DNA from: an uncultured Legionellales bacterium
GTDB taxonomy: Bacteria; Pseudomonadota; Gammaproteobacteria; Eutrophobiales; Eutrophobiaceae
Assembly: GCA_913046215.1 (NCBI GenBank)
Contig: CAJWRJ010000001.1
Location: 72,897 to 136,896, forward strand
DNA: 64,000 bases
Reading direction: 5' to 3'
Of this stretch, positions 4,630-46,756 are shown in pieces. The first letter of the stretch is position 1; every line of letters begins with the position of its first letter. Position numbers and translations under genes: made by a program. A model generated the notes under the pieces. It made no database searches, was not told the DNA's origin, and saw only the letters and a program-made list of their open reading frames with translations.

Positions 4630-4663
4630 ATTAATAATATTTTTAATTCGTTTTTCTAGTCGG

Positions 4664-4951: not shown

Positions 4952-5057
4952 ATAAGTAGTTGTTCTTATTTATTGAAAAAATTAGAGTTTTTTACGTTTC
5001 TTGTGCTTGCTCAAAGCTTCGCCCATTGATACAGTTACACTACAGATTGTCATATGA

Positions 5058-6245
<1,188 letters not shown>

Positions 6246-6286
6246 TACAGGAGAGTTTTCATATTAGCGATTTATTTCGAAAAGGA

Positions 6287-7126: not shown

Positions 7127-7185
7127 ATAAATTTTACGAGGTAAAAAACATTCATAATCGAATAAAAAGCAATTTACTAATAGCC

Positions 7186-7635
7186 ATGACATTTGCTCTT
7201 GGTTTCGTTTTATCTGCTATTCCAATTCCTGAAGCAGTTAGTAATTGGCGACCATCTTTGGTGCCACTAATTTTAATTTATTGGTGTATGGCTTTACCAA
7301 ACAGAGTTGGGATAAAATCAGCTTGGATTTTAGGAATGTTATTTGACGTACAGAAAAGTTTTGTATTGGGACAACATGCAATAGGCTTCATTTTTTTGGC
7401 GTATATAATAATAAGAAACCATAAACGTATGAGAGTGTATCCATTACCACAACAGGCTGTTATAGTCTTAATATATTTATTAATATATAAAAGCATAATG
7501 TTATCCATTATGTTTTTATCTGGATCTTTTCACTTCACTTGGTCTTATTGGCTACCAATTGCTAGTAGCGTAATATTATGGCCATTTTTATTTTTGGGCA
7601 TGAGACTTTTTCGACGTAGATATGATATATCTTAA
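7186..7635 (+). CDS. mreD: rod-shape determining protein MreD
   Basis: 149 aa polytopic membrane protein immediately after mreC. Confidence 0.8.
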   Translation: MTFALGFVLSAIPIPEAVSNWRPSLVPLILIYWCMALPNRVGIKSAWILGMLFDVQKSFVLGQHAIGFIFLAYIIIRNHKRMRVYPLPQQAVIVLIYLLIYKSIMLSIMFLSGSFHFTWSYWLPIASSVILWPFLFLGMRLFRRRYDIS

Positions 7636-7662
7636 CTAGAAATTCACAACGAAAAATAACTG

Positions 7663-26063: not shown

Positions 26064-26960
26064 CTAATCAAAAGCCCAGCTCGCAAAAGGCTCAATCTCC
26101 CCTCTGTTAACCACTATAAGTTGATATTTATTTGGGTTTAGTGAATGGTCAGCAGTTGTATCAACGGAGAGTTGTTGTAGTAGATAGCCAATTAATGAGC
26201 GTCTTACCTTAATATTAATTAAATTCTTACTATTACTACTATAATCAATAAGTAAACTTTTTTGTTTTTCTTTGTCAAGTTTTGGATGGGGTGCGAGTTC
26301 TAATGATATAATCTCTACCCAGTCATCATCATAGAGTTCATTTGATTCCGCTGCATCATTGAGACATTTTGCATTTGCAAAACGAGATAGCACAAAATCT
26401 CTAAAATCAAATGTTTCTTCAGAGTAGGCGCGTACGTGCCAACGAAAACCAGTGTTAACAAGTGAATGAGGCTCAATAATTCTTTTTGATGGTTGTTCTT
26501 TTTCAGTGAGTGAATGATAACTTACCTTTAACTTTCTTTTGTTACATATCGACCGCGTAATTTGTGAAAGCACATTCTTTTTAGGTAGTCGACTTGGGAG
26601 TGTTAATGAAAAAGCAGGTATACCAAAGATAGAGTCATTCATATTTTGCGAATTTGAAATTATAAAATTAGATTCAAATATTGGCAGGGCTGAGGCCGGA
26701 GATAAGTCGGCGACGACCTCCTCGAATGAATCACTCGGCACAAAGCCAAACACGCTGTGCTTGTAGATAAGATTATCAGGTGCTAGCTCACTGTATAATT
26801 TCAAATCTTTGGTAGCAGCTGCATCAGAGATTGCAAACGCTCTTGCCACATCACTACGCGTGATCAATCCCGCGTAAAAGGCCATCAGTTCAATATACTG
26901 GAGACGTTGCAGAGTTACCCACTTGATTTCATCTATCGCTGTTCTTCGTTTTGTCATCAT
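26064..26960 (-). CDS. HTH + WYL-domain transcriptional regulator (PafBC/DriD/BrxR-like architecture)
   Basis: 298 aa. N-terminal helix-turn-helix (LMAFYAGLITRSDVARAFAISDAAATKDL), a central WYL-type segment (KLKVSYHSLTEKEQPSKRIIEPHSLVNTGFRWHVRAYSEETFDFRDFVLSRF) and a C-terminal extension. Transcribed divergently from recA. Confidence 0.6.
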   Translation of the reverse strand: MMTKRRTAIDEIKWVTLQRLQYIELMAFYAGLITRSDVARAFAISDAAATKDLKLYSELAPDNLIYKHSVFGFVPSDSFEEVVADLSPASALPIFESNFIISNSQNMNDSIFGIPAFSLTLPSRLPKKNVLSQITRSICNKRKLKVSYHSLTEKEQPSKRIIEPHSLVNTGFRWHVRAYSEETFDFRDFVLSRFANAKCLNDAAESNELYDDDWVEIISLELAPHPKLDKEKQKSLLIDYSSNSKNLINIKVRRSLIGYLLQQLSVDTTADHSLNPNKYQLIVVNRGEIEPFASWAFD

Positions 26961-32901: not shown

Positions 32902-33034
32902 AAAAACAGATTCTAAAATCGAGATTCAGCCTCAATTGTCAAGGTTCATTTCAGGACAGCCAATATTTTACACTTAAAAAACTGTCCTAATTATAGGTAT
33001 AATTGACTCATATACTACGAAAGTGCCAATAATA

Positions 33035-34390
33035 ATGAAAAAAAAATATAAAAACTTTCATATTTTTGTCGGGCTGTTACTTGTGTTAAAAGTATCAATC
33101 ACCACAGCTGAAACATTACCTCAGTATGGCAAAGATATGCATCTAGGAGTACAAACTTGCTCAGGATCAACATGTCATGGTGCCGTTCAACCATGGCAGA
33201 ATTCATCTGTGCTTCAGAATGAAGCAATTACTTGGAAAAAATATGATCATCATGCTCGTGCTTTTAAGACATTAGCAAGCGAGCGTTCAAAACGTATTGC
33301 AAAAAATTTGGGAATAGAAAACCCGCAGAAAGATAATGTGTGTTTAAACTGTCATGCAAATAATGTTCCCAAAGAAAAACGTGCTAAAAATTTCATGATA
33401 AGTGATGGTGTTACCTGCGAAGCATGCCATGGAGGTGCAGAAAAATGGCTAGGCATTCATGTTTCCGGAGTGGGTGGACGTGAAGAAAATATTAAAGCTG
33501 GGCAGTACCCAACCGAGGAGCCTTTAGCTAGAGCAAAACTTTGTTTAAGTTGTCATTATGGTACTGAAAATAAATTTCTTACACATAGAATAATGGGTGC
33601 AGGCCATCCAAGGTTAGCTTTTGAACTTGACACATATACTGCGACACAACCAGCACATTACAAAGTTGATGCAGATTATAGACAAAGGAAAAGATGGAGC
33701 AATGGTGTTAGAACATGGGCAATCGGACAGGCAGTTGCTGTCGAAGAAACCTTAAATGCGTTGACAGATAAAAATAGAAATCGCCAAGGTATTTTTCCTG
33801 AACTTGTATTCTTCGATTGCCATGCTTGTCACCACCCTATGTCTAATCTTCGCTGGGAGCGAAGAGATAGTGTAGGTCTTGATCCTGGAATTCCAAAACT
33901 AAATGACGCAAACATTGTAATGTTGCGAGTAATTTCTTCTGTAGTTGATCCAGAACTTGGTAAGCGTATAGAAGAAGAGACTAAACGGTTACATCAAGCA
34001 TCAATGAAAGGCGGTGATGCAACGTTTGAAGCCGCGGATGTTTTGAGATCAACCTTAAAAGGCGTTGTTCAAAAGATTAGTAAACATACTTTTAATCAAA
34101 AAGAAATGGAAAAAATACTTAATGCGCTCTTAGAGTTTGGATTTCATGGTGAATATGTTAATTACATAGCAGCTGAACAGGCTACTTACTCAATTGGTAG
34201 CGTCATCGAGGCTATGAAAGATAGTGGAATGATAAGAGGGAAGGCGATTGAAAAAGTTAAAAAAGCAATGGACATGGCCTACGAAGCGGTTAAATCTGAT
34301 GAAAAGTATCGTCCTTCAGAATTTGTCAAAGCAATTGAAAATATAAAAAAATCCGTAAGTCCGGAATTACAGCTTTCAAAAAAACACTAG
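33035..34390 (+). CDS. secreted pentaheme c-type cytochrome (4 CXXCH + 1 CX4CH) with a non-heme alpha-helical C-terminal domain
   Basis: Signal peptide MKKKYKNFHIFVGLLLVLKVSITTAETL. Heme sites CSGSTCH, CLNCH, CEACH, CLSCH and CHACH fall in the first ~270 aa. The remaining ~180 aa are heme-free and predicted helical. Confidence 0.8.
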   Translation: MKKKYKNFHIFVGLLLVLKVSITTAETLPQYGKDMHLGVQTCSGSTCHGAVQPWQNSSVLQNEAITWKKYDHHARAFKTLASERSKRIAKNLGIENPQKDNVCLNCHANNVPKEKRAKNFMISDGVTCEACHGGAEKWLGIHVSGVGGREENIKAGQYPTEEPLARAKLCLSCHYGTENKFLTHRIMGAGHPRLAFELDTYTATQPAHYKVDADYRQRKRWSNGVRTWAIGQAVAVEETLNALTDKNRNRQGIFPELVFFDCHACHHPMSNLRWERRDSVGLDPGIPKLNDANIVMLRVISSVVDPELGKRIEEETKRLHQASMKGGDATFEAADVLRSTLKGVVQKISKHTFNQKEMEKILNALLEFGFHGEYVNYIAAEQATYSIGSVIEAMKDSGMIRGKAIEKVKKAMDMAYEAVKSDEKYRPSEFVKAIENIKKSVSPELQLSKKH

Positions 34391-34516
34391 GTGATTAGCC
34401 AAAATCTGGACAAAATTACGACCTAAATTATCATCAAGTGTTTTATAGAATAATATTATTAGATAGTGTATTTTTTCAGTATGAGATTAGAAAAATCACC
34501 GAATGTAAGTCAATAT

Positions 34517-36349
34517 ATGGTATTTCCAAAAAAGACACTTTTTTTACTCGTAGGCATTATTTTTTTCAGTGTCTCAAGTGCTAATGAACCTATTATAGAT
34601 CAAGACCTAAAATTACCCGATAATTATCAATCTCAGTGGGAGAAAGTTGCTGGTGATTCTGAACCCGTAATGCCAGGCGGGGGAGACGGATTAGATCCAC
34701 ATCTTAAAATATTACAACAATCGAAATATCCATCAGCTGCACTTTGTGGAAGATGTCACCAGCGTATTTTTACTGAGTGGGCTTCATCAAACCATGCTTA
34801 TGCATCAATTTCGCCAATGTTTCACAAGTTTGAGCAAGCGGTCAATGCATTGACGTCTGGCACGATGGGTACTTTTTGCGTGCGTTGTCATCAACAAGTC
34901 GGTACTCAAGTCGGAGAAACTCGCGAAGCACCTCTTTGGGAACGTTCACAAGTTGCTAGAGAAGGTATCACATGCATTACTTGCCATAGAGTTAATCAAG
35001 CGTTTGGAAAAGTAAATGGCGAGCGTCACATACAGCCAGGGACTATTTACGAACCAGTATATAATACTGGCGATGCGCCAGGTGTTGCAGAGGTGATATC
35101 TGAACGTGATTATTATAAAGTTGCAACGAATCCTGACGAGGAAGGCTTCCCGATACACGGCGGCGCTCAAGTTTTCGAGACAATTGGAGAGTCTGAGTTT
35201 TGTGTTTCATGCCATCAGGTCGCAGTTAATTTAGGAATTAAGTTAGAAGTTGTATGGGAACAGTACCGTGATAGTCCTGCGCATGCGAAGGGCGTGACTT
35301 GTCAAGAGTGTCATATGGGCAAGATTCCGGGAGAAGCAAAAGGCTATGATACTGGACCTGTTGCTATAGTTAATGGACGCGTTGTTGGAGATCCAAATCG
35401 TAAACATTCAAATCATGCATTTTACGGACCCGGTTATCCAATTGCTCACCCTGGTTTATTTCCATTTAATGTGCGTTCATTGAAATGGTCTGTAAAAGAG
35501 TGGCTGACATTTAATTATCGAAAGCCATGGGGTAAGCCTGATTGGGAGGATAAGCTCGAACAAGGATTGGTGGAAAAACCAGAATTTCCTGAAATATGGT
35601 CGACTAGACAGGCACGAGAAGAAGCTAGATACATAATTGGCCAGAACAATAAATTGCTCGAGAATAAAAAGCTAGATCGTTTAGCTGTAATGGAAAATGG
35701 AAGCCGTATTGATGGACCATTTTTTGATAATGGTAAACCAGAAATGGGAAAAGATTTAAAATTTCGTTATCGAATTACAAATGTTGATGAGGGACACAAT
35801 CTTCCATCTGGTTCTTTAGGCGCACAACCAGAAATCTGGCTCAATGTCGTACTCACAGATCCTGATGGCGAACGTGTATTTGAATCAGGATATGTTGACA
35901 AGTACGGAGATATGGTTGATTTACATTCGTTAGAGTTGGCCGAGGGCACAATAGAACACGATGATCAACTTTTTAATCTACAAACAAAATTTTTGACAAC
36001 CAATATTAAAGGTACTGATCGCGAGATGTATCTGCCTGTTAATTTCGATATAGATCAACTCCCATTTTTAAGACCTGCCCCACAACCAACGACTGTCATG
36101 AATCATCCACCTTTCGTGAGAATGGAGGGTCGTTCAATACCACCTTTAGCTTACCGTGATGCTAAATATAAAGTCTCCGGTGATTTAATAAAAAAATCTG
36201 GCACATATAAATTACAAGTAAGAATGCGAAGTCGTGCGGAACCAATTTATTTTATGAAATTTGTTGGTGCAACACTTGATATGGAAAAAAGAATTAATGA
36301 CTGGATGATTGATATTCATCCATACTCAGTCGATTTTGATATCAATTAA
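34517..36349 (+). CDS. secreted pentaheme c-type cytochrome with a ~300-aa non-heme C-terminal domain
   Basis: Likely start MVFPKKTLFLLVGIIFFSVSSANEP (signal peptide). Heme sites CGRCH, CVRCH, CITCH, CVSCH and CQECH. The track ORF begins at 34466. Confidence 0.8.
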   Translation: MVFPKKTLFLLVGIIFFSVSSANEPIIDQDLKLPDNYQSQWEKVAGDSEPVMPGGGDGLDPHLKILQQSKYPSAALCGRCHQRIFTEWASSNHAYASISPMFHKFEQAVNALTSGTMGTFCVRCHQQVGTQVGETREAPLWERSQVAREGITCITCHRVNQAFGKVNGERHIQPGTIYEPVYNTGDAPGVAEVISERDYYKVATNPDEEGFPIHGGAQVFETIGESEFCVSCHQVAVNLGIKLEVVWEQYRDSPAHAKGVTCQECHMGKIPGEAKGYDTGPVAIVNGRVVGDPNRKHSNHAFYGPGYPIAHPGLFPFNVRSLKWSVKEWLTFNYRKPWGKPDWEDKLEQGLVEKPEFPEIWSTRQAREEARYIIGQNNKLLENKKLDRLAVMENGSRIDGPFFDNGKPEMGKDLKFRYRITNVDEGHNLPSGSLGAQPEIWLNVVLTDPDGERVFESGYVDKYGDMVDLHSLELAEGTIEHDDQLFNLQTKFLTTNIKGTDREMYLPVNFDIDQLPFLRPAPQPTTVMNHPPFVRMEGRSIPPLAYRDAKYKVSGDLIKKSGTYKLQVRMRSRAEPIYFMKFVGATLDMEKRINDWMIDIHPYSVDFDIN

Positions 36350-36359
36350 AAAAAAGATC

Positions 36360-38825
36360 ATGCCTCTAAAACATAATAAATTAAATAAGATTTATAGTTT
36401 ATTTTTATATAGTGCACTAGTTTTATTTTCATACCAGCAGCCATTATATGCGGATGTGTTGACTTCAGTTAATGATTGGGCGAAGGCTTGGGCATCACAA
36501 AATGTTGATCAATATTTTGAAAGTTATGCTGAAGATTTTGCGCCCTCTCAAGAACATACTAAAAAAACTTGGAAATCTCAAAGAGAGAGTAGATTGTTGT
36601 CTCCAAGTTTTATCAAGGTGACATTATCTAATATAGAAATCAGCCAGCACTCTGAGGATTTTGCTGATGTGCTTTTTACACAAAACTATAAGTCAGATAG
36701 CTATTCTGATGAAGTGACAAAACAATTGAGAATGCAAAAAATTGATGACAAATGGCTGATTATAAAGGAAAAAACTATAAAAATAAGACAGAAAACAGAA
36801 CTCCAATTAGTGAAAAAAAATGAGGTTTTAGAGGACACCACAACAGTCCAAATCGAACATGATGTTAAAGAGGCCTTGAATAGTTGGTCAAAGGTTTGGT
36901 CATCTCAGGATATTGATGGTTATTTTGCAGCTTACGCTGAAGATTTTTCGCCATCCAACATATCAAACAAAAAAAAATGGAAAAAACAACGTCATAATAG
37001 AGTCATTAGTCCAAGCTATATAAAGGTAACTCTTACTGATGTGAAGATTACACAACACAGTAAAAATAATGTCGACGTAGTATTTAATCAAAATTATGAA
37101 TCTAGTAATCACAGCGATGATGTTAGAAAACTTATTTCCATGCAGAGGGAAAATGAGCGATGGTTGATCACCAAGGAGAGAGTAAAAAAAGTTTTGATTG
37201 ATATTAGTGAAGACCTATCTTCACAAGACAAAACTAATCTTATAGCAGAATTAGATTCTCACAGTGATAGTTCAATAAATTATGCAGATGTTGTTCCTGT
37301 TGAAGATGATTTGAAAGATGAAAGTATTTTACGAAGAAGAGATGTACCCGCCGATACTGTTTTAGAGAAGAGAAGTGGTAGTCCTAAACATAAAAGTCAC
37401 CAAGCGCCACCCGAAATGGATCCTCATGTTCGTCCATCTGAATTTGAGCCAGATCTTTTTGGAAGTGATCCAGTATATCCAGATAATGTTTATGATGTTG
37501 CTGAGCAAATAAAAATTTATGGTGGAAAAACTCCATTTGATGAACCACGTCCAATACTAGAATTTGGTTATCCTCTTTATTCCGAGGGTGCTTTGGGTAG
37601 AACCTATGATGTTATTGGAGAGAAAAACTTGTTAAGACCACAGCTACTTGTATACGGTGATTTTAGAAGTGCTCTTGCTTTTAACGACAATGGCAACAAG
37701 GAGATTGGTCAGATCGCTGCAAGGTTGAATCTTGATGTTGATTTAAAATTAACCGCAACAGAACGTATTCATCTTTTTCTTCGTCCTATTGATAAAAATA
37801 ATAATTTTCTTCGTCACGAGTTTTTTGGCGATGATCATAATGACTTCGATTTTGTGTTAGATGCAAATCTTGAGACTATTTATTTTGAGGGTGATATAGG
37901 GGCCATTCAATCGGGATTAACAAATGAATGGGCAACTTATGATTTGCCCTTTGCTATTGGTTTCATGCCTTTGCTTTTTCAGAATGGAATATGGCTTGAT
38001 GACGCATTTGTAGGTGCTGCATTTGCTATTCCAGCGATGAATTCTCCAAAGTACGATATATCAAATATGGATATTAGCTTTTTCACTGGTTTTGACAAAG
38101 TAACAACTGCAGCATTAAAAAATGGAGCTGGTCAAATAGAGGATAGTAAGGGAAATGTTTTTGGTGTAAATGCATTCGTGGAAACTCGACAAGGATACTT
38201 AGAAGCCGGTTATGGTTTCATTGATGATAAACGTAATGGAAATATATTAAGTGGTTTTGATCATCATAGTTTGACTGCAGCATGGACAAAGAGATATAGA
38301 GGGAAACTTTCAAACTCAATACGTGGTATCTGGACATTTGGACAAACTCCGAATGGAGGCAATACCCAGACTGCTGATGGGTTTGTCATTCTCATAGAGA
38401 ACTCACTTATAACTAGCAAGCCATCAACTTTAATTCCATATGGCAATTTTTACGTTGGTGTGGATAGACCTCAACCACTTGTACGTGGCAATGATGGGCT
38501 TCTTAAAAATACAGGAATAGTCTTTGAAACCGACGGTTTAACAGGATTTCCAAAACTTGATTCCTCTGCTCAAGATGTATTTGGTGGCGCAATTGGTATT
38601 CAATACCTCTTTGATTTATCTAGACAGGCTGTATTTGAAGTTGCAACTGTTCAGCCATTTGGCGGTCAGTCTGCGACGATTGTTGGCGATCAGTACGGAT
38701 TGAGCGCACGATATCAGCATAATTTAAATGATCGTTGGCTTATAAGGACGGACGCAATGATTGGAATTCTTAATAATGCAGAGAATATTTCTGGTATTCG
38801 TCTCGAATTGCGCCGTAAATTCTAA
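36360..38825 (+). CDS. outer-membrane beta-barrel protein with two tandem N-terminal NTF2/SnoaL-like domains (putative porin partner of the cytochromes)
   Basis: Signal peptide MPLKHNKLNKIYSLFLYSALVLFSYQQPLYA. Two ~110-aa repeats (VNDWAKAWASQNVDQYFESYAEDFAPS...WLIIKEK and LNSWSKVWSSQDIDGYFAAYAEDFSPS...WLITKER). The ~540-aa C-terminal region shows alternating amphipathic strands and a terminal ...GIRLELRRKF, the OMP C-terminal Phe signature. Confidence 0.6.
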   Translation: MPLKHNKLNKIYSLFLYSALVLFSYQQPLYADVLTSVNDWAKAWASQNVDQYFESYAEDFAPSQEHTKKTWKSQRESRLLSPSFIKVTLSNIEISQHSEDFADVLFTQNYKSDSYSDEVTKQLRMQKIDDKWLIIKEKTIKIRQKTELQLVKKNEVLEDTTTVQIEHDVKEALNSWSKVWSSQDIDGYFAAYAEDFSPSNISNKKKWKKQRHNRVISPSYIKVTLTDVKITQHSKNNVDVVFNQNYESSNHSDDVRKLISMQRENERWLITKERVKKVLIDISEDLSSQDKTNLIAELDSHSDSSINYADVVPVEDDLKDESILRRRDVPADTVLEKRSGSPKHKSHQAPPEMDPHVRPSEFEPDLFGSDPVYPDNVYDVAEQIKIYGGKTPFDEPRPILEFGYPLYSEGALGRTYDVIGEKNLLRPQLLVYGDFRSALAFNDNGNKEIGQIAARLNLDVDLKLTATERIHLFLRPIDKNNNFLRHEFFGDDHNDFDFVLDANLETIYFEGDIGAIQSGLTNEWATYDLPFAIGFMPLLFQNGIWLDDAFVGAAFAIPAMNSPKYDISNMDISFFTGFDKVTTAALKNGAGQIEDSKGNVFGVNAFVETRQGYLEAGYGFIDDKRNGNILSGFDHHSLTAAWTKRYRGKLSNSIRGIWTFGQTPNGGNTQTADGFVILIENSLITSKPSTLIPYGNFYVGVDRPQPLVRGNDGLLKNTGIVFETDGLTGFPKLDSSAQDVFGGAIGIQYLFDLSRQAVFEVATVQPFGGQSATIVGDQYGLSARYQHNLNDRWLIRTDAMIGILNNAENISGIRLELRRKF

Positions 38826-38834
38826 ATAATTATA

Positions 38835-40532
38835 TTAAATTTTTTCTTTTGGCATCATCAAGTCTTCGCGATGAAAGCCATGACATTCAGTACAGGTGCT
38901 TTTTACTTTTGTTGTCGTTGTTTCTCCACCATGGCATTCCTGACAAGTTGTAATTGACGGGAGCAGTATATCGGTAGCTTTTTCACTTTTTGTTGCATCA
39001 TGACATGTTGTACATTCTCTATCTTTGTGCGGTTTATGATTAAAGAAACTTTTTGGTAGCCACTTTGTTGGTACATGAACAGTTGCTATATCCCATCTAC
39101 CCGTTTTTTTATTTTCTACAATTTGGTGACATTCTCCACATAGTCCACGACCATATCTTCCTTGTACAATTTCTTCGGCTTTTGCTTCAGCCCATTCTAG
39201 AGCCGCCTTCTTTTTTTCTTTAGTATCAGGTTTATCGCCTATTAGTTTACGAAAAGTTGATGTTTCATCATTTAATGTATTTGACTCAATAAAATTGCCT
39301 CGAAGTGCAAACTCGGCATATGTTCCTATAATATATTCTTTTGCTAAAGAAATATTTCCATGCGGCATCTCTCTATTAGGTGCTTGAGGTTCAAATTTTA
39401 AGTCGTGGCAACTGGCGCAGTGTTTTTCAAAACTTACAGGGAGTAAAGCAACACCTCCAGTTTCAGGCTCATGGCAGAATCCACACTGAAGAACCGTTCG
39501 TGTTCCATTTGGATGTCTAACTCCATTTTCTTTTAGATGCTTATTATGTGGAAATTTCAAATTCGATCGATCTATTGGTTTTGGTTTTTTTTGATCAATC
39601 GTCACTCTCTCAAAAGTTAAAGGCTGATGAGTTTTTATGAGTGTAGGACGAAATTGAGGATGTTCGTTAAAGTTTGAGACATTTTTTAATTTAGAATTCT
39701 CAGCAACATCTAGGATTTCACTATGGCAGTTGCTACAAAATCTTTCAGTGGTGATAAGCAAGCCCTGATCGCCATTATGTTCTTTATGACAATCCTGACA
39801 CTGTTGTCCATCTAAAGAGGCGCTTGGAAATATAGACGGGTCCGCATGGTGCCCGGCATCATCATGACAATCAAAACATACTTTATTTCCTACTTGTTGA
39901 AATGCATCTGTATGGCATGTTTCGCAGCGATCGCCAAAATGTGCATGCACACTAGAATGAGGGCCTGACAACCAAATTTTATCAGCGGTTGCTAAAATTC
40001 CATTTTTTTTTGTTTCACTTACTGTTTCATTTTTTTTATATTTTATCGTATATGCGGTAAGTGGCCCCAATATTCCAAGCGTGATAATTCCAATAAATAA
40101 AACCCACGCCCATCCTCTAGTACTGAGTCCAAGCGAATCAAACTGTGTATTTGATCGTTTTTTAAATGCTTCTAATTCATCACCTAGTGGACGCGAGTAC
40201 TCAATAGTTAATACAGCATCATATCCATCTTCATTATCTAAGACCTCGATATCATATGGACCAAGATGAATTTTATCTCCCGTTTTTACGGTTGATTTAG
40301 TAAGGATTTGATCATTAACCTGAAAATCACTATCTCCTTGACCCTCTAAGTATAGTTCTCCCGAACGCTCTGTTATTTCAAGTTGAATTAATAGAATTCT
40401 TGGATCAGTTAAGTGAACCTCGCATTCTGAACCACGTCCAAAGCGAATTGCAGGAGATTCTATATCTTCGTCACGCTGAGCATATCCCCCAGAACGAGTT
40501 TTTTTAAGAAGATGTCTAATAAGTACTTTCAT
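38835..40532 (-). CDS. FHA-domain / single-TM / periplasmic decaheme c-type cytochrome fusion
   Basis: 565 aa. N-terminal FHA-like fold (IRFGRGSECEVHLTDPRILLIQLEITERSGELYLEGQGDSDFQVNDQIL...GDKIHLGPYDIEV), TM helix (WAWVLFIGIITLGILGPLTAY), then ten CXXCH sites: CETCH, CFDCH, CQDCH, CSNCH, CGFCH, CASCH, CGECH, CTTCH, CQECH, CTECH. Confidence 0.75.
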   Translation of the reverse strand: MKVLIRHLLKKTRSGGYAQRDEDIESPAIRFGRGSECEVHLTDPRILLIQLEITERSGELYLEGQGDSDFQVNDQILTKSTVKTGDKIHLGPYDIEVLDNEDGYDAVLTIEYSRPLGDELEAFKKRSNTQFDSLGLSTRGWAWVLFIGIITLGILGPLTAYTIKYKKNETVSETKKNGILATADKIWLSGPHSSVHAHFGDRCETCHTDAFQQVGNKVCFDCHDDAGHHADPSIFPSASLDGQQCQDCHKEHNGDQGLLITTERFCSNCHSEILDVAENSKLKNVSNFNEHPQFRPTLIKTHQPLTFERVTIDQKKPKPIDRSNLKFPHNKHLKENGVRHPNGTRTVLQCGFCHEPETGGVALLPVSFEKHCASCHDLKFEPQAPNREMPHGNISLAKEYIIGTYAEFALRGNFIESNTLNDETSTFRKLIGDKPDTKEKKKAALEWAEAKAEEIVQGRYGRGLCGECHQIVENKKTGRWDIATVHVPTKWLPKSFFNHKPHKDRECTTCHDATKSEKATDILLPSITTCQECHGGETTTTKVKSTCTECHGFHREDLMMPKEKI

Positions 40533-40535: not shown

Positions 40536-41378
40536 TTACCAATAAAAAAATACAGCTAGTATGTGAGAGAAAAGTGCAGCCAATAAACCTATCGATAGTG
40601 GAATATGAAAAAATAACCACACTCTTAGAATTACTTTTATTTGAATATCGCGTCTCGCTCGTCTGAGTAATTTTGTTTTTTTTGCAAGTAAAGCGATTAC
40701 CTTTGATATGTTTTGATCGCGAAGACCCATATCAGCAAATTTTTCTTCAATTAAATTCCTAGCATTTAGGGTTGGACAGTCAATATTTTTTGGTGATAAT
40801 TTTTCTATTATATTTCCACCTATACTAGTCTCAGTGGCTGCTTTAAGTAGAGCCGTATTTATTTCTTCAGGCAGTTGCTGACCAGCTTTAAGAATATCTT
40901 GATCTAGTTCTGAAATTTGCCCCATCATTTCATCTAGAGACAGTCCAGCTCGATTTTTTGTCATTAGCTTTGGATAATATGCATAAATAAATACCCCAAC
41001 AACACCACTTAACACAGTTAACAGCATAAGGATGTAAGCAATGGAATGGATATTCCATCCAATCTGAAAACCACTATGTAGAGTTGCGGTAACTACAAGA
41101 GCGAGTCCAAGATAAATATGAGCAGACAACCAAACCTTTAATCCTGTTGCACTAACAGCATATTGCCTTTTTCTAACTCCAAACCAAGTTAACCACAAAA
41201 CTAAAACAGCTGAAATTATCCCCAATGTGTATCCAAGCCATGATCCGCCATTTGGTTCACCCAGGGGGTTATGCCATATATAAAGAACGATTGAGATAAA
41301 AGCCAATGCGACGGCATACCAAAGAAACTTGAGACCTTTATAGATAAAAAAAGAATCATGGACATTACGTGAACTCAT
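40536..41378 (-). CDS. polytopic inner-membrane protein with conserved intramembrane His (putative b-heme / quinol-interacting subunit)
   Basis: Start MSSRNVHD, placed by a TGATATG stop/start junction with the upstream gene; 280 aa. Five TM helices with His in helices 3-5 (LSAHIYLGL, WNIHSIAY, FFHIPLSIGLLAALFSHIL). A ~100-aa soluble loop lies between TM4 and TM5. The track ORF is extended to 41579. Confidence 0.55.
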   Translation of the reverse strand: MSSRNVHDSFFIYKGLKFLWYAVALAFISIVLYIWHNPLGEPNGGSWLGYTLGIISAVLVLWLTWFGVRKRQYAVSATGLKVWLSAHIYLGLALVVTATLHSGFQIGWNIHSIAYILMLLTVLSGVVGVFIYAYYPKLMTKNRAGLSLDEMMGQISELDQDILKAGQQLPEEINTALLKAATETSIGGNIIEKLSPKNIDCPTLNARNLIEEKFADMGLRDQNISKVIALLAKKTKLLRRARRDIQIKVILRVWLFFHIPLSIGLLAALFSHILAVFFYW

Positions 41379-41379: not shown

Positions 41380-43788
41380 TCACTCGCTCCCGTCTCTAAT
41401 AAAGTCCATGAATTCGTCTGGTTTGACACGTATCGCCGCCCCAGTTGGGCAAGCACGCACACAAGCAGCACCACCTTTAATATCCTTACACATATCGCAC
41501 TTAACTGCTGTTTTGCGAGCATCCTCCGGTGCTCTTTCTCGGTAACCATAGTCTTCGCCTGGTCCAGGACCTTTTCCAAAAAGAAGCCAAGAAAACAAAT
41601 TTGGTTTTTCTGGTGGTTCAGGCGCCATTTGAATTACCCCATATGGGCAATTTTTTTGGCAGTTACCACAACCAATACAGTCATTTGTAATGTAAACTTC
41701 ACCGTCAGGGTTTCTTTTAATAGCATCGGGAGGACAGTCCGTCATACAGTGCGGATGTTCGCAATGTCGGCAACTTGTTGGAACATGCACGTTTGCAAAT
41801 GTTGGTCCTGCCTCACGATTTAATCTCGAAATACCCCTGTGTGTCTCGGCACAGGCTTTTTCACAATTATCACATCCAACACATAACGATTCGTTTATTA
41901 AAAGCACATCAGTTGCTTCACCTATACCTTCTCCCATTAAAAATTCTACAATACTTCCAGCCTCAGGTTGCTCTATCATTTTTTCTGTTGAAACAATACG
42001 TTCACCATATTTCTCTTCGATTTCTTTTTGAAGAGAAGGATTTTCATCAACTAATTTGCGGAAGATTTCACCATCTATCTTAATTGTTTCACAATCAACC
42101 GCGGCTTTAATTGTTGCTGTTCGATTTAAATCTGACATTAATGCCATTTCCCCAACATAATTACCTGCAGCGACGTAAGCAAGGGTTACCTCCTTACCAC
42201 CTATTCGTTTCGATACCATCACTGAGCCTTTACTTATGAGATAAAGCGCATCACCCTCATCACCCTCATTAAATATAACTTTACCTTTACGAAAGGTTTC
42301 TATTGAAGCTGAGTCTGCCAATTTTTGTATTGCATTAATGTCGAGGGCGCTTGCGATATAAGTTTGAATTTGCCTTACGATAGCCTCTTTATCCATAGAA
42401 TTTCGTAAAGAACGGACATCCTCTCTTAATTTAAGCATCGTACGACGAGGCGTTTCAATTAATATCGTATCATCTGCATTAGATAAAATTGTTGCCGAAC
42501 GTCTACGACCCGATATTAATCCCACTTCTCCAAAAAATGCACCTTGCTCCAAGACAACAAACTTAGATGGATCATCCTCGCTAGTTTGTATTTTGACTGA
42601 GCCCCTGAATATTGTGTAGACACTATTCGTATAATCTCCCCGTTCAAAAATTACTGTTCCATTAGGCGGCGCAGTTACGGTTGATTCAACTAACATTTCT
42701 CTTTCCATTAATGGGTTTAGTTCTTCAAATATAGGAAGTCTTGCCCTCACTTCTTTTAAAAAAGAATCATTATCAAAATCCTTTATATCTTTTAAAGTTT
42801 TAGTAATTATTGGTTCATCAGCTGGATCTAATTCCGTGTTACCGTTGATATATTCAATGACTTCATAACCCTGATTTATTGCATGTTTAATTAACGGATA
42901 TCCACCTAAGGAGCCAACTATATATAGGCCTTTAACATTTGATTCGTAGGTTTTGCTTACTTCTGGCAACGCGCTGCGTGCATCAGATGGAAAAGTAACT
43001 CCACAGGCTTCAACAAACTTTCGTGGCGGTGCTGCACCAAGTCTAGCAATCACTCTGTCACACTCTATTGTTACATCGCCATCAGGCGTATCAAAAGTTA
43101 ATGTTCCTTCCGAACATTCCTTTGAACTACTATTGTATAGGGGAGTAATACGTCCTCTATCAATTTCAGCTAAAATAGCCGCTTCATTTGCTTCTTTTGC
43201 ACGTGAAAATTCATTACCACGATTAGCTATATAAACTGTGTTATGCGTACACAAACCAAGTGCATTTTCTATTGCAGCATCACCCGCACCGATAACAATG
43301 ATAGTTTCATGCTCATATTCATCTGGGTCATCTAATTGATATTGAATATGCGTGACATCATCTATTCCAGGTATTCGTAAAGTATTCAGATTACCTTGAA
43401 GACCTATTGCAAGAACGATTGATTCTACTTTAATAATATCTTTATTTTTTAGTGTAAGCTCAAACTTTCCTTTTGTTCCTGAAACAGATTTAACTTCAGA
43501 ATTGTATAGAATATTAACTTGGTGATTTTTTAATGCTAGATTCCATCTATCGAGAACATCTTCTCTGCTTCCCATTTTAAAATCGATATCTGAACGCAAG
43601 GGAAGCACGTCCGGAGTTGCCATAACATGCTTACCTTTTTGAAACTTGTAAATTGTGTCCGATACATGATCTGCTTTTTCAATTAATACATGTCGTAAAC
43701 CTAATACAGATGCATGCGCTGCTGCACTAAGACCAGCTGGTCCAGAACCTATTATTGCAACTTGAAAAATTGATTCTTTACTCGCCAT
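41380..43788 (-). CDS. FAD-dependent pyridine-nucleotide oxidoreductase fused to two cyclic-nucleotide-binding domains and a poly-[4Fe-4S] ferredoxin domain
   Basis: 802 aa. Rossmann fold VAIIGSGPAGLSAAAHA plus a second dinucleotide site IIVIGAGDAAIENA. Two cNMP-binding segments (FFGEVGLISGRRRSATI; YVGEMALMSDLNRTATIKA). C-terminal Cys clusters CVGCDNCEKAC, CRHCEHPHCMTDCP, CIGCGNCQKNCP and CDMCKDIKGGAACVRACP. Confidence 0.8.
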   Translation of the reverse strand: MASKESIFQVAIIGSGPAGLSAAAHASVLGLRHVLIEKADHVSDTIYKFQKGKHVMATPDVLPLRSDIDFKMGSREDVLDRWNLALKNHQVNILYNSEVKSVSGTKGKFELTLKNKDIIKVESIVLAIGLQGNLNTLRIPGIDDVTHIQYQLDDPDEYEHETIIVIGAGDAAIENALGLCTHNTVYIANRGNEFSRAKEANEAAILAEIDRGRITPLYNSSSKECSEGTLTFDTPDGDVTIECDRVIARLGAAPPRKFVEACGVTFPSDARSALPEVSKTYESNVKGLYIVGSLGGYPLIKHAINQGYEVIEYINGNTELDPADEPIITKTLKDIKDFDNDSFLKEVRARLPIFEELNPLMEREMLVESTVTAPPNGTVIFERGDYTNSVYTIFRGSVKIQTSEDDPSKFVVLEQGAFFGEVGLISGRRRSATILSNADDTILIETPRRTMLKLREDVRSLRNSMDKEAIVRQIQTYIASALDINAIQKLADSASIETFRKGKVIFNEGDEGDALYLISKGSVMVSKRIGGKEVTLAYVAAGNYVGEMALMSDLNRTATIKAAVDCETIKIDGEIFRKLVDENPSLQKEIEEKYGERIVSTEKMIEQPEAGSIVEFLMGEGIGEATDVLLINESLCVGCDNCEKACAETHRGISRLNREAGPTFANVHVPTSCRHCEHPHCMTDCPPDAIKRNPDGEVYITNDCIGCGNCQKNCPYGVIQMAPEPPEKPNLFSWLLFGKGPGPGEDYGYRERAPEDARKTAVKCDMCKDIKGGAACVRACPTGAAIRVKPDEFMDFIRDGSE

Positions 43789-44197: not shown

Positions 44198-44926
44198 TTA
44201 CTGTCGCCTTTTAAGCCACATCCAAATACCGGTAGCGGAAATAACAAGCATTAGAATTGCAACCAGATCCATAAAGTAGGTACCCCATTTTCCTACAACA
44301 CGGCCGCTATGCATATCAAGCAATACTCTTTCAATTGTCAGACCTTTGCCGCGGTACTCGTTAAAAATAGCAATTCTTAGTTTCTCGGATATATTATTTG
44401 ATGTGTCCGACCAATTTGCAGAAAGCAGATCATGTTCATTCCAGTTCAAAATATCCAAATTGACGCGATAATAACCATGTGCCGATTTAATTATTACATT
44501 ATCCTTATCATCAACACCAATTGCTTTCATCCCTGCGGGAACACCCTCGGCACCTGATAAAGATTCTAAAAGTTTACCGTCTTCAGTAAGCACCATTAAT
44601 TTTCCATCATAACCAACGACAAATGTGTTATTTATATAAACAACACCAATTAGGTTTTCTACATTAGTAATAATTTCTATGTCATTGAAATAAACACGTT
44701 GACCAAGTTGTGTTATCCAGTTGTTATTGTAGGAAGGGTATGCGATAGGTTCGGAGTTTGGGCTAATTTGATAAAGATCAAGCAACCATTCCATCTTTAT
44801 AAATGTTGTATTTAACTTGAACTTTTCACTGTGGTTTAATGCGATACCGCTAATAGCAAGAAAAATAACAAATATTACGATGAATATTCCTATCTTTTTG
44901 TGCCACCTTTGTATAAAAAGAAACAT
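44198..44926 (-). CDS. PepSY-associated TM-helix family membrane protein (two TM helices flanking a periplasmic domain)
   Basis: 242 aa. N-terminal QRWHKKIGIFIVIFVIFLAISGIALNH and C-terminal LDMHSGRVVGKWGTYFMDLVAILMLVISATGIWMW are typical PepSY_TM helix signatures with conserved His. Confidence 0.6.
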   Translation of the reverse strand: MFLFIQRWHKKIGIFIVIFVIFLAISGIALNHSEKFKLNTTFIKMEWLLDLYQISPNSEPIAYPSYNNNWITQLGQRVYFNDIEIITNVENLIGVVYINNTFVVGYDGKLMVLTEDGKLLESLSGAEGVPAGMKAIGVDDKDNVIIKSAHGYYRVNLDILNWNEHDLLSANWSDTSNNISEKLRIAIFNEYRGKGLTIERVLLDMHSGRVVGKWGTYFMDLVAILMLVISATGIWMWLKRRQ

Positions 44927-44956
44927 ACACCTATTCTAGGATGCAATTATTTATTT

Positions 44957-45484
44957 TCAATTTTTATTATCGATATATTGATCTAGAAATAGAGCTAGAC
45001 GTGCTAATTTTATCAAAGCATCAACTGACAATGTTGCTCCACTAATACCATCAATTTTTCTATCTAATTTTGTATCAGCCTTAAGAGAGGCATCTGCAAA
45101 TTGTTCTGTAAAAAAAGGATATCTTACTTCCCATCCTCTTGATTCTCTAAAAACTAGTACTTTCACATCTAGAATCTTTCCTTTTGAAGTAACATATCCA
45201 GTCGTAATTGGCTTGTCTCTGCCAATTCTCTCTAAAATCCAGGCTTTTTTAGACCCATCATCCCAATATCGAAGTCGTAATGGCTTGAATTCATCTCCCA
45301 GTATTTTTTTTATTTCTTTCTTTAGCTCTTTTTTAAGCCATAGTTTTTTTGGATTTGGAGGGTTATTGTTAAACACGTCCGATAAAAATTTTTCAGGTTC
45401 TAAGTAAGTTCCCTTTGCATAAGAGTGTAAACTCCAACTCTGAGTTAGTAGAAATAAAAAGATATATAAAGTCAGTTTTGTCAT
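44957..45484 (-). CDS. secreted FMN-binding domain protein (predicted ApbE flavinylation target)
   Basis: 175 aa with a signal peptide. The C-terminal KIDGISGATLSVDAL matches the D-x-[ST]-G-A-T-x-[ST] motif of NqrC/RnfG-type FMN_bind domains, whose Thr (here T151) is covalently flavinylated. Confidence 0.65.
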   Translation of the reverse strand: MTKLTLYIFLFLLTQSWSLHSYAKGTYLEPEKFLSDVFNNNPPNPKKLWLKKELKKEIKKILGDEFKPLRLRYWDDGSKKAWILERIGRDKPITTGYVTSKGKILDVKVLVFRESRGWEVRYPFFTEQFADASLKADTKLDRKIDGISGATLSVDALIKLARLALFLDQYIDNKN

Positions 45485-45589
45485 ATTTAGTTATAAGCCT
45501 ACAAAAAAAATAGGGCACTTACAAAAGTGCCCTAAATATATCACCACGAGGATATTACCGTTGGTACGATAATTCTTAAAATTTATTAT

Positions 45590-46756
45590 TTAGAACGAAT
45601 ACCCTACACCAAGATAGAAGTTATCTGTGGTTGTATTATCATCAACATCTTTAACCGATTCAAAGGTACCTTTGAAAACTACCTTTGGATGTGGCCAGAT
45701 ATTAAAACCTGTTGAGGTACGTTCTTCTTCGTTTCTAGAGCCTGTAAAACCTCTGTCTATGTCTTCGTATCTGATGTAGACACCTACGTCGGTATTACTA
45801 TTACCCACAGTCCAACGATAGGCTGGCTCAACATACCAACCTTCTGAGTCTTTACCATCAGCTGATAAGTTCTTATTCATATCCCATCCCGCATAAAGAG
45901 CGCGGAAACCTAAACCCGAGCTATGTTTATAATCGACATGAGTTGTAAATAAGTGAGCATCATTTCCTGATACTAGTTCACCACCGATGTTACTTTGGAA
46001 TTGGTATGAAGCAGATAATTCAAGACCTGGAACACCGGTATAACGGAGTCGACCAGTTGCTGCCGGATATTCTGCGTTTGCTTCTGCTACCTTTTGTCTA
46101 CCAGATCGTATGTTGCTACTCGTTTCTAACCCTGAGTGAAGTACGATGTCATAGTTAACACCTGGTGCAACTTCCCCATTGAAACCAAAACCTGCTTCCC
46201 ACCAAGTTGAAGGAATGATTCTTTTTTCTACTTCATTTCGCTCAACTCCATAGAATGTATTAGGTTCATGTGTAACATTCAACATACCAACAGGTAGAAT
46301 ATCAAGACCGGCACGGAAATGATGATTTTCACTAAGGTCAATTTCAATCCATGCTTGTTCTAATTCAACCTCACCTTCTTTACCCTCTCCAGCTAATGAA
46401 TGCTCTAATTCCCATTCTGAGAAGAAGTGGATGTTATCGGTGTAGTCATGACCTATGTATAGGACATAACGGTGGAAGTCGACTTGATCTGTTCCATCAC
46501 CAAATTTGTAATGAAGTTCACCATAGCCGCCCATCTGAGTTTTATCAGCCCAATTACCAGTTGCACCACCAGCACCAGATTCTACAGCTTCTGCGGTAGC
46601 ATCAAGTTGCTCCTGGAGCTCTTCAATAACTTTTTGCTGTTCTTGTATAGTTTGCCACATTTCTTCTGCTGTCGGTGCTGCTTTAGCGGCAGAGACAGTA
46701 AAAAACATGAATAGAATCATGTAGATAACTCTATTAATGTGATTATTCGTATTCAT
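45590..46756 (-). CDS. outer-membrane beta-barrel porin-like protein
   Basis: 388 aa. Signal peptide (an alternative start is MILFMFFTVSAAKA at 46720), an N-terminal coiled-coil (WQTIQEQQKVIEELQEQLDA), alternating amphipathic strands, and a C-terminal ...NFYLGVGYSF. Confidence 0.6.
   Translation of the reverse strand: MNTNNHINRVIYMILFMFFTVSAAKAAPTAEEMWQTIQEQQKVIEELQEQLDATAEAVESGAGGATGNWADKTQMGGYGELHYKFGDGTDQVDFHRYVLYIGHDYTDNIHFFSEWELEHSLAGEGKEGEVELEQAWIEIDLSENHHFRAGLDILPVGMLNVTHEPNTFYGVERNEVEKRIIPSTWWEAGFGFNGEVAPGVNYDIVLHSGLETSSNIRSGRQKVAEANAEYPAATGRLRYTGVPGLELSASYQFQSNIGGELVSGNDAHLFTTHVDYKHSSGLGFRALYAGWDMNKNLSADGKDSEGWYVEPAYRWTVGNSNTDVGVYIRYEDIDRGFTGSRNEEERTSTGFNIWPHPKVVFKGTFESVKDVDDNTTTDNFYLGVGYSF

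Follow-up and report, generated by a model that had tools for sequence, protein, structure and literature searches.

A ptd-like gene cluster encodes an FHA domain joined by one transmembrane helix to a periplasmic decaheme domain

Why would a protein with ten haem-binding motifs in the periplasm carry an FHA domain in the cytoplasm? The question is raised by a gene at 38835..40532 on the minus strand of the window, by which we mean the whole 64,000-nucleotide stretch of DNA analysed here. Within 565 aa, its product links an FHA domain through one transmembrane (TM) helix to a c-type cytochrome domain of the decaheme kind, and it is referred to as PtdG-like after the gene cluster that it resembles. 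Membrane-anchored periplasmic multihaem cytochromes such as CymA/NapC/NirT and the Geobacter proteins CbcL and ImcH start extracellular electron-transfer chains; unlike the system considered here, they draw on the quinol pool and have neither a cytoplasmic FHA domain nor a flavin/iron–sulfur partner. In the Tmc/Hmc transmembrane redox complexes of sulfate reducers and in the NOX/FRE/STEAP reductases, which use NAD(P)H, a flavin and two b haems, a cytoplasmic iron–sulfur or flavin module is combined with a membrane cytochrome b and an outside redox partner, and the NOX family moves NAD(P)H electrons across the membrane on two b haems whose His pairs lie 13–14 residues apart. None of those systems has FHA or cNMP domains, and in the window the subunits are separate genes.

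Results

Architecture and topology of the PtdG-like protein

According to the open reading frame (ORF) list and its translation, the minus-strand gene starts with ATG and encodes 565 aa, and Met1 aligns with Met1 of the homologs. The Pfam models FHA, Cytochrom_c3_2, Cytochrome_C7 and Paired_CXXCH_1 each score above gathering in this protein. Full-length homologs numbered 100 among the matches listed, a search with the alignment as query gave the same 100, and conservation was counted over 49 homologs with 26–78% identity to the window protein.

The cytoplasmic FHA domain (aa 1–112; 40197..40532, minus strand) was assigned using an AlphaFold (AF2) model, Foldseek, a family profile and residue counts. 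PF00498 matches aa 29–91 with 24.6 bits (gathering score, 20.7), and a profile built from the first 128 aa of the family members retrieves Rv1747 FHA-2 and GarA from PDB sequences at E=1e-14. The model of aa 1–112 has 11 strands at a pLDDT of ~95. All 50 Foldseek PDB matches listed for the full model are FHA or FHA-like, 49 of them having E <= 0.001; for the closest GarA, OdhI, FhaA and Ki67 domains among the matches listed, the target TM-scores lie at 0.66–0.79. A preliminary description of the gene had assigned this fold and proposed such a structural comparison; the beta-sandwich that it expected in the N-terminal 110 aa is present in the model. The Yop-YscD_cpl model (PF16697) matches below its threshold (18.3 versus 33.2 bits), and a precomputed match to it is annotated on some homologs.

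A conserved linker (aa 113–137, RPLGDEL...RS) leads into the single TM helix (aa 138–162; 40047..40121, minus strand), the sole hydrophobic stretch of the protein, over which the model also predicts a helix. Exactly one hydrophobic segment, at aa ~138–162, was found in the window protein and in 49 of 49 homologs, with a family-wide excess of Lys and Arg on its N-terminal side. The N-in/C-out topology, with a cytoplasmic FHA domain and a periplasmic haem domain, holds as previously claimed. The competing case named in the preliminary description, a plain secreted decaheme protein with the segment as its cleaved signal peptide, has nothing in its favour beyond the presence of one hydrophobic segment and is extremely improbable: the segment begins at aa ~138, after a confidently folded 112-aa domain that is conserved in the family, and the N-terminus is hydrophilic. 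We rejected this reading because a segment placed behind a folded N-terminal domain cannot be an N-terminal signal peptide.

The periplasmic part (aa 163–565, ~400 residues) contains the decaheme domain (aa 186–555; 38868..39977, minus strand). Its CXXCH motifs lie at aa 203, 219, 245, 266, 350, 372, 465, 507, 530 and 547, where ~0.04 would be expected by chance given the protein's own Cys and His content, and all ten are invariant in 49/49 homologs, in agreement with the earlier count. Ten further His (196, 229, 252, 291, 329, 332, 391, 499, 502 and 554) are invariant in the 49 homologs, and the sequence therefore offers enough ligands for ten bis-His haems. PF14537, PF14522, PF02085 and PF09699 score above their gathering scores, as expected of a multihaem cytochrome of the c3/c7 superfamily. 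These results confirm the domain order first proposed for the gene, from FHA beta-sandwich through one TM helix to ten haem motifs, and identify its product as an inner-membrane protein whose ten periplasmic haem sites are presumably occupied.

The haem domain had also been described as MtrA/DmsE-like. The likeness is that a conduit protein facing the periplasm carries ten CXXCH haems; MtrA, however, is soluble, is made with a signal peptide and becomes inserted in a porin, whereas the window protein is anchored in the inner membrane. As a statement of membership the label was rejected: TIGR03508, the model of the DmsE-family decahemes, does not match the protein at E<=0.01, and a sequence comparison with solved structures in the PDB gives no match for the haem domain. 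No multihaem structure is present among the 50 Foldseek PDB matches listed for the full model. Also rejected were membership of NapC/NirT/CymA, PF03264 being absent from the protein's Pfam matches at E<=0.01, and membership of TmcA on model scores (TmcA, 22.5 versus 114 bits; HmcB, 35.6 versus 420 bits; both weak and far below threshold).

A large family with earlier descriptions

A profile search at E<=1e-30 placed at least 2,190 representative 50%-identity clusters in the family, with hosts among marine Gamma- and Alphaproteobacteria, soil Betaproteobacteria, Sphingomonads, Magnetococcales and iron oxidisers. An architecture called unusual in the preliminary description is therefore not rare: it belongs to a large, conserved family that is already listed in the literature. 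The window protein is a member of this known kind, and papers on PtdG, Gallionellaceae and Ferrigenium noticed proteins that by description are its counterparts, without giving them a function.

The ptdABCDEFG cluster was described from Alphaproteobacteria of marine oxygen-deficient zones, with its function stated to be completely unknown (bioRxiv 10.1101/2023.11.21.568154). Matched by description, it shares with the window a decaheme gene adjoining genes for TM ferric-reductase-like and cNMP-binding 4Fe-4S proteins, a tetraheme cytochrome (cyt455 in the window, with 4 CXXCH), a pentaheme cytochrome with a C-terminal domain, beta-rich in the ptd cluster, and a putative porin, and it is found in marine Alpha- and Gammaproteobacteria. 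That paper differs from our results in calling PtdG 'periplasmic', with the FHA domain and TM anchor unmentioned, and in crediting PtdE with two 4Fe-4S clusters as against four Cys groups in the window protein (bioRxiv 10.1101/2023.11.21.568154). The ptd cluster also includes a separate PtdC FAD/NAD(P) oxidoreductase, for which we found no counterpart among window ORFs of at least 150 aa or in the alphaproteobacterial locus L009. The 802-aa PtdE-like protein of the window carries a flavin domain of its own. The gene order, too, is not that of the ptd cluster: in the window, D-A-B converges on G-F-E.

Two further accounts concern Fe(II)-oxidising Betaproteobacteria. Cluster 403 of the Gallionellaceae, a 'Forkhead-associated protein' of unknown function, has an FHA domain in the cytosol, one TM helix and 10 CXXCH in a periplasmic part (PMC10734462); no Gallionellaceae names appear among ten distant cluster representatives of our family. 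The 'NHC' of Ferrigenium straubiae, also of unknown function, likewise places an FHA domain in the cytosol and a multihaem part in the periplasm, with one TM helix between them (bioRxiv 10.64898/2026.01.22.701106). Genes for a 5-TM protein and a [4Fe-4S] protein adjoin it, as in the window; compared by description, it has nine haems rather than ten, and its authors found the 5-TM protein to lack any redox motif, whereas the window family shows conserved His pairs. [quoted passage not shown] New here are the constancy of the PtdF-like gene, with its paired His and weak cytochrome b561 matches, the linkage to a YpdA-like flavin/two-cNMP/four-Cys-group enzyme, and an FHA pocket that keeps Gly-Arg without the phosphothreonine-binding Ser, His and Asn.

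Conserved membrane and cytoplasmic partners

We compared 73 genome loci, retrieved with a 14-sequence alignment as query. The PtdF-like gene lies directly upstream of the FHA–decaheme gene in 73/73. Its product in the window (40536..41378, minus strand; 280 aa, 5 TM) has invariant His87 and His101 in TM3 and His258 and His272 in TM5, each pair spaced 14 residues, plus His111. We take this layout to be the classical two-b-haem pattern of the cytochrome b and ferric-reductase families, and the sequence makes the PtdF-like protein a probable two-haem membrane cytochrome b. Family models match weakly throughout (PF01292 in 25 of 26 members, DUF4405 in 9 and Ferric_reduct in 5). PtdF was independently called 'ferric reductase-like' (bioRxiv 10.1101/2023.11.21.568154). 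We set the start at Met68 (ATG at 41378) of a listed 347-aa TTG ORF that overlaps the upstream gene, because homologs are 273–297 aa long and begin there.

The PtdE-like gene (41380..43788, minus strand) encodes an 802-aa cytoplasmic protein, characterized through Pfam, NCBIfam, Cys groups and PDB relatives. Its FAD/NAD(P) domain resembles YpdA and TrxR and is accompanied by a pair of cNMP-binding domains and by a ferredoxin domain of the four-cluster [4Fe-4S] type, with the Cys groups lying at aa 636, 673, 704 and 764. The flavin domain has dinucleotide motifs GSGPAG and GAGDAA and no CxxC, and both cNMP phosphate-binding cassettes are intact (GE..L....RRSAT and GEMAL....NRTAT). Solved relatives in the PDB are Bdr/YpdA (1e-24), PKA-R/PKG and HycB (8e-19). 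The three genes form a compact operon, with 1 nt between the PtdE-like stop and the PtdF-like ATG and 3 nt between the PtdF-like stop and the ATG of the FHA gene; promoter and terminator scans across 32.4–44.3 kb gave results at chance level.

In gamma, alpha and Magnetococcales loci the PtdE-like gene comes immediately upstream, whereas in beta loci it closes the same-strand operon, adjoining the PtdD-like gene. The trio also occurs at B6S01_RS18445–18455 on the megaplasmid pMSHV of the cultured Sphingobium herbicidovorans MH. Other cultured hosts are Desertibaculum subflavum and the isolates that the ptd paper lists; Roseibium aggregatum and Tistlia consotensis also carry the cluster. Because the PtdG-like protein always stands beside a probable cytochrome b and mostly near a flavin/iron–sulfur enzyme, it appears to belong to an electron wire that leads out of the cell.

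A different assignment of the same genes would link the decaheme domain to the quinone pool, in the manner of CymA, NapC/NirT or CbcL, with a quinol/quinone site in the PtdF-like protein and the flavin/iron–sulfur/cNMP protein as a regulator or side branch. Quinone reactivity is common among cytochromes b of the PF01292 type, which matches weakly here, and in CbcL such a domain is combined with nine c haems. A quinone-linked module has been proposed for a protein of the same layout in the Ferrigenium preprint, and flow could run outward from quinol or, as suggested there, inward from Fe(II) oxidation to quinone (bioRxiv 10.64898/2026.01.22.701106). We nevertheless consider the arrangement unlikely: no quinone-site residues were identified, the NapC/NirT model PF03264 finds no match in the FHA–decaheme protein, and the flavin/four-cluster gene, linked to the pair in the majority of loci, is more conserved than the other two (74–76% identity where the decaheme protein has 52–55%). 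Such conservation and linkage suit a catalytic partner better than an accessory.

Cytochromes and a putative porin on the opposite strand

Three plus-strand genes converge on the trio. The PtdD-like periplasmic cytochrome (33023..34390) has 4 CXXCH, one CX4CH and a signal-peptide-like N-terminus, and co-occurs with the FHA–decaheme gene in 40/73 loci from gamma-, alpha- and betaproteobacteria. The PtdA-like pentaheme cytochrome (cyt627; 34466..36349), supported by Pfam, has 5 CXXCH and a large non-haem C-terminal domain of about 340 residues, and is syntenic in gamma loci and in alpha loci L006–L009 and L058. The PtdB-like putative outer-membrane porin (36309..38825; likely ATG at 36360) carries two N-terminal Cds6_C NTF2-like domains by Pfam. 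This 838-aa protein ends in ...RRKF, and its C-terminal ~500 aa are 65–71% conserved in alpha loci; the porin role is taken from the ptd paper (bioRxiv 10.1101/2023.11.21.568154).

These surroundings bear on the idea of a redox sensor, in which the haem domain would read the outside redox state and the FHA domain would pass the signal into the cytoplasm, perhaps to the cNMP-binding enzyme. Many signalling proteins likewise have a sensor-like module outside, a protein-binding module inside and one TM helix in between; cNMP domains are encoded next door, and in 8 beta loci a gene for a CHASE2 cyclase is located upstream of the cluster. Ten invariant bis-His haems would, however, far exceed known haem sensors, the gene is embedded among multihaem cytochromes and a porin-like protein, and a single helix offers no obvious route for transmitting redox changes, all of which makes a sensor very unlikely.

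A degenerate phosphothreonine pocket

The preliminary description had offered two roles for the FHA domain, gating of electron flow by a Ser/Thr kinase or an assembly scaffold. Residue inspection of the window protein did not reveal a canonical phosphothreonine-binding pocket: Gly32-Arg33 are kept, Leu47 replaces the Ser, Gln50 replaces the His and the loop Asn is absent. Across the family, Gly-Arg is invariant, the Ser is kept in 8/49 members, the His in 34/49 and the loop Asn in about 0/49.

For gating, the domain would have to bind a phosphothreonine made by a Hanks-type kinase. It is genuinely homologous to FHA domains and most closely matches GarA, OdhI, FhaA and Rv1747, which read phosphothreonine, and the invariant Gly-Arg, together with Ser-x-x-His in 8/49 members, is compatible with such binding. 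The lost pocket residues argue against it, as does the neighbourhood: no Pkinase or PP2C domain was found among the window's ORFs of at least 150 aa, and within 10 kb of the gene a PknB query found a Hanks-kinase-like gene in only 1/73 related loci, a PstP query none. Neither a Hanks kinase nor a PP2C gene is thus a conserved neighbour of the FHA–decaheme gene, and kinase gating, left without support, is distinctly improbable.

GarA and OdhI bind enzymes through the same FHA face without phosphate. The window protein resembles them, and YscD/EscD/PrgH of type III secretion, in placing a cytoplasmic FHA fold next to an enzyme partner or a single TM helix, although 4d9v, an FHA-like structure from a type III system, comes no higher than 47th among the Foldseek matches listed and no secretion-system genes lie near the gene. 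Identity to the window protein is similar in the FHA and haem domains (60 versus 56% in close relatives, 38 versus 39% at mid distance), and the FHA domain is therefore under constraint. In the sole FHA-less relative examined (P0100), neither a cytochrome b nor a flavin/iron–sulfur gene adjoins. The domain is most likely a phospho-independent docking module. Of the two roles first offered, the scaffold is the better fit, and we put it forward as a suggested function.

Discussion

We propose that the PtdG-type protein serves, on the periplasmic side, as the output subunit of a transmembrane electron conduit fed by NAD(P)H, with its FHA domain as a docking module, a reading to which we give about an even chance. 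The subunit would be held in the inner membrane by its one helix, with the FHA domain in the cytoplasm and ten bis-His haems in the periplasm. The PtdE-like enzyme would take electrons from NAD(P)H at its YpdA-like flavin, under control of the two cyclic-nucleotide-binding domains, and pass them along its four [4Fe-4S] clusters. The PtdF-like protein could then carry them across the membrane on two b haems, His87/His258 ligating the one on the cytoplasmic side and His101/His272 the one on the periplasmic side. From there the decaheme chain may hand electrons to the PtdD-like and PtdA-like cytochromes and the porin-like protein, all products of the plus-strand genes, from which they would reach an acceptor outside the cell. 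The FHA domain may fasten to the membrane complex either the cytoplasmic flavin/iron–sulfur subunit or the insert at aa 135–245 that the cytochrome b has on its cytoplasmic side. The analysis shows the domain composition, the conserved haem motifs and His residues, an FHA fold with a degenerate pocket and the linkage of the genes; the binding of the cofactors, the subunit contacts, the docking role and the outward direction of flow are what we infer from them. Outward flow is favoured on bioenergetic grounds, since no member of the chain has a lower potential than NAD(P)H and electrons that move outward follow the membrane potential.

A more specific form of this proposal is tentative, and we would sooner expect it to fail than to hold: PtdE, PtdF and PtdG may together form a split, cyclic-nucleotide-gated NOX-like machine that is independent of the quinone pool and reaches the cell surface, with a degenerate FHA domain clamping its cytoplasmic to its membrane subunits. 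If so, this would be a new use of the FHA fold and a new, widespread route for extracellular electron transfer in aerobic marine and soil Proteobacteria.

A quinone-independent, NAD(P)H-fed exporter, if that is what the cluster encodes, would represent a new entry point to extracellular electron transfer and would matter for how iron or manganese is reduced in ocean waters deficient in oxygen. The FHA fold would, in that case, gain a structural role in a respiratory-type complex.

A decaheme cytochrome carrying a cytoplasmic FHA domain

The open reading frame at 38835–40532 on the minus strand encodes a 565-aa product, and its ATG start aligns with Met1 of homologs. The protein contains ten CXXCH motifs (aa 203, 219, 245, 266, 350, 372, 465, 507, 530 and 547), far above the ~0.04 expected by chance from its own composition, and its sole hydrophobic stretch lies at aa ~138–162. 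Across 49 aligned full-length homologs (26–78% identity), the ten motifs are invariant and each homolog has exactly ten of them together with exactly one hydrophobic segment, as the preliminary description had proposed for the window protein. A further ten invariant histidines would suffice to give all ten haems bis-His ligation. The gene converges on that of a porin-like protein, with stop codons only 9 bp apart (38825–38835) and no terminator-like hairpin seen between them.

The N terminus is an FHA sandwich, based on four agreeing lines of evidence: a Pfam FHA match at aa 29–91 (24.6 bits versus a curated threshold of 20.7); matches of the N-terminal 128-aa family profile to solved FHA domains, including Rv1747 FHA-2 and GarA (E ~1e-14); an AlphaFold model built from the 49-sequence alignment, in which aa 1–112 form eleven strands at a pLDDT near 95, followed by a helix at 138–162; and Foldseek, for which all 50 of the PDB matches listed were FHA or FHA-like domains. 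Top matches listed were GarA, OdhI, EmbR, Ki67 and FhaA, the closest having target TM-scores of 0.66–0.79, while the type III secretion FHA-like structure 4d9v ranked only 47 among the 50.

A plain secreted cytochrome would require the hydrophobic segment to be a cleaved signal peptide, and this was rejected because a folded domain of 135 aa precedes the segment. Lys and Arg are richer in the 15 residues before the helix than in the 15 after it in 33 of 49 sequences, and mean net charge across the homologs is +2.4 before versus +0.3 after, although the window protein alone is ambiguous on the Lys and Arg measure. Covalent c-haem attachment is periplasmic and, together with the family trend, supports an N-in/C-out orientation.

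A large and partly described family

A word-indexed search returned 100 full-length relatives, for which the best annotation was 'cytochrome c3 family protein'. When 1.84 billion representatives were searched exhaustively with a profile, at least 2,190 proteins reached E ≤ 1e-30; among them, the top 150 were all below 1e-146, nearly all spanning almost the whole profile. Scanning one genome per species identified 73 loci with the gene. Their hosts include MAGs of marine origin that carry the label Legionellales (85% identity, which makes an organism of this kind the probable source of the window), Rhodospirillaceae, Pacificispira, Desertibaculum subflavum (an isolate), numerous Usitatibacter, Casimicrobiaceae and Burkholderiales MAGs, and Magnetococcales. 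The gene is also present on twelve Sphingobium megaplasmids. One of these is pMSHV of Sphingobium herbicidovorans MH (NZ_CP020539.1, 801035–817324), where the FHA-decaheme gene and its two partner genes occur with the second cluster variant and are named in RefSeq 'cyclic nucleotide-binding domain-containing protein', 'hypothetical protein' and 'cytochrome c3 family protein'. pMSHV is a 959-kb conjugative megaplasmid of a cultured soil bacterium, and the other carriers include eleven more Sphingobium megaplasmids.

The protein or its operon has been met in three literature sources. The cluster ptdABCDEFG was named in a preprint on marine oxygen-deficient-zone Alphaproteobacteria, which calls its function 'completely unknown', never mentions FHA in its text and gives cultured hosts in Table S7 (10.1101/2023.11.21.568154). 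Set against this published description rather than against sequences, six of the seven components are matched by composition in the window, which, unlike the ptd cluster, has no separate PtdC. A Gallionellaceae pangenome includes, in 27 genomes, a cluster named 'Forkhead-associated protein' that has 10 CXXCH (PMC10734462). For Ferrigenium straubiae, a 2026 preprint describes 'NHC', a nonaheme protein whose FHA domain is cytosolic and which has a single TM helix; it adjoins a [4Fe-4S] protein and a 5-TM protein that, according to the authors, lacks a redox motif, and they describe the combination of FHA and multihaem as not previously reported (10.64898/2026.01.22.701106). The feature is real and was well described initially, but the architecture, then considered unusual, is neither rare nor new.

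Conserved partners and cluster variants

The three minus-strand genes of the window are tightly packed (gaps of 1 and 3 nt). Using tblastn of the window's neighbour proteins against all 73 loci, we found the gene for the 280-aa PtdF-like membrane protein immediately upstream of the FHA-decaheme gene in every case. The gene for the 802-aa PtdE-like protein is directly upstream in gamma, alpha and Magnetococcales loci, whereas in beta loci it is the last of a same-strand operon; in L047 the membrane protein is followed by the FHA-decaheme protein, an HbpS-like protein, an SH3 protein, a multihaem protein of 1283 aa with LVIVD, a homolog of the PtdD-like cytochrome and finally the flavin/cNMP/FeS protein. 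Homologs of the PtdD-like cytochrome accompany the membrane protein and FHA-decaheme pair in both cluster variants, while the PtdA-like pentaheme cytochrome (34466–36349, plus strand) and the 838-aa porin-like protein occur in the variant of the window, Pacificispira-type Alphaproteobacteria and the alphaproteobacterial locus L058.

The membrane protein is a probable di-haem cytochrome b, judging from its histidines. Its true start lies at 41378, which corresponds to Met68 of the ORF as listed, and the modelled fold comprises five TM helices plus a helical insert on the cytoplasmic side (aa 135–245). His87, His101, His111, His258 and His272 are invariant in 26 homologs, with His87/His101 on TM3 and His258/His272 on TM5 each 14 residues apart; two such pairs are the classical ligation of two membrane-stacked b haems in cytochrome b and ferric-reductase families. 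Members scanned singly gave weak matches to prokaryotic cytochrome b561 (PF01292, 25/26, best 2.4e-7), DUF4405 (9/26) and Ferric_reduct (5/26), with the window member below threshold. The 802-aa protein combines a YpdA/TrxR-like flavin domain (Bdr match at 1e-24; GSGPAG and GAGDAA motifs; no CxxC on inspection of this domain), two cNMP-binding domains with intact phosphate-binding cassettes, and a HycB/NrfC-type domain whose four Cys groups imply four [4Fe-4S] clusters.

Several features of the surrounding genes were also observed. The 1283-aa protein of the second cluster variant (L047 15675–19526; homologs in 46 loci) is mostly 62–92% identical versus ~30–40% for the FHA-decaheme protein, a conservation level suggesting that it may be a catalytic component. 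The PtdD-like cytochrome (33023–34390, plus strand) has a CX4CH first motif (CSGSTCH at aa 46) and then four CXXCH, and may bind five haems rather than four. The porin-like protein (36309–38825, plus strand) likely starts at ATG 36360 and not at the listed TTG, where it would overlap the gene upstream; it carries two N-terminal Cds6_C NTF2-like domains that alphaproteobacterial homologs lack (for example, 538 aa at L009 11883–13499). Minus-strand genes (44198–46756) for a 242-aa PepSY_TM protein, a 175-aa periplasmic FMN_bind protein and an unannotated 388-aa porin-like protein with a signal peptide and a ...GVGYSF terminus lie immediately upstream of the ptdE-like gene, and L001 and L003 show synteny here. 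With an ApbE flavin transferase 9 kb away (55766–56767, minus strand), these could make up a second extracytoplasmic module for electron transfer, based on flavin. A WYL-domain protein gene (26064–26960, minus strand) is divergent from recA, and the remaining window genes are housekeeping (rpoA, gatAB, mreBC, mrdAB, lipAB, xseA, guaAB, alaS, lysC and a two-component pair).

A probable docking role rather than kinase gating

The FHA domain is a constrained, working domain by sequence comparison, matching the haem domain in conservation (60 versus 56% identical to the window protein in close relatives and 38 versus 39% at mid distance). Its phosphothreonine pocket, by the same kind of evidence, is degenerate. 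HMMER aligns the family 'rvslehA' with 'vSrrHA' of GarA, where the window protein reads R-I-L-L-I-Q-L, with Leu47 in place of Ser and Gln50 of His; the loop that is canonically Ser/Thr-x-Asn-Gly is one residue shorter and lacks Asn. Among 49 members, Gly32 is retained in 49, Arg33 in 48, His in 34, Ser in 8 and Asn in ~0. The virtually invariant Gly-Arg could mark an anion-binding contact.

Gating by a Ser/Thr kinase, one of two roles initially proposed, lacks support given this pocket and the neighbouring genes: no Pkinase or PP2C domain was found in ORFs ≥150 aa of the 64-kb window, a PknB kinase-domain query matched in 1 of 73 related loci, and a PstP query matched in none of the 73. In eight beta loci the region upstream of the cluster encodes a CHASE2 adenylate/guanylate cyclase, with only weak partial matches in three more; this cyclase accords with the cNMP domains, not with phosphothreonine signalling, and is a plausible source of ligand for those of the flavin/FeS protein. 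In L047 the upstream genes (2417–8934) encode this cyclase, a FecR-like protein, a SlipAM-type barrel and CcmH/CycH; the cyclase and FecR recur in seven other beta loci and SlipAM in eight others. Because the FHA domain is conserved, retains few pocket residues and is linked to two partner genes, it would most simply be a phospho-independent docking module at the cytoplasmic membrane face, akin to GarA/OdhI binding to enzymes or to YscD-type ring components. One FHA-less relative (P0100, L074 5915–7522; 535 aa) has a short N-terminus, a TM segment and the multihaem domain; in this single case the gene adjoins a GAF histidine kinase, and the cytochrome b and flavin/FeS genes are both absent beside it.

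An inner-membrane electron conduit is the best-supported reading; a quinone-linked role is less probable, and a redox sensor less probable still. Electrons would pass from NAD(P)H through flavin, four FeS clusters, two b haems and ten c haems, and then to the periplasmic cytochromes and porin-like protein. We favour this outward direction since NAD(P)H is the lowest-potential member and electron export goes with the membrane potential. The FHA-decaheme protein is a new member, from a marine gammaproteobacterium, of a family that has a name but is uncharacterised. To this family the analysis adds a degenerate FHA pocket, His pairs that point to a di-haem cytochrome b as partner, a probable four-cluster flavoenzyme partner and strict gene linkage across Proteobacteria.
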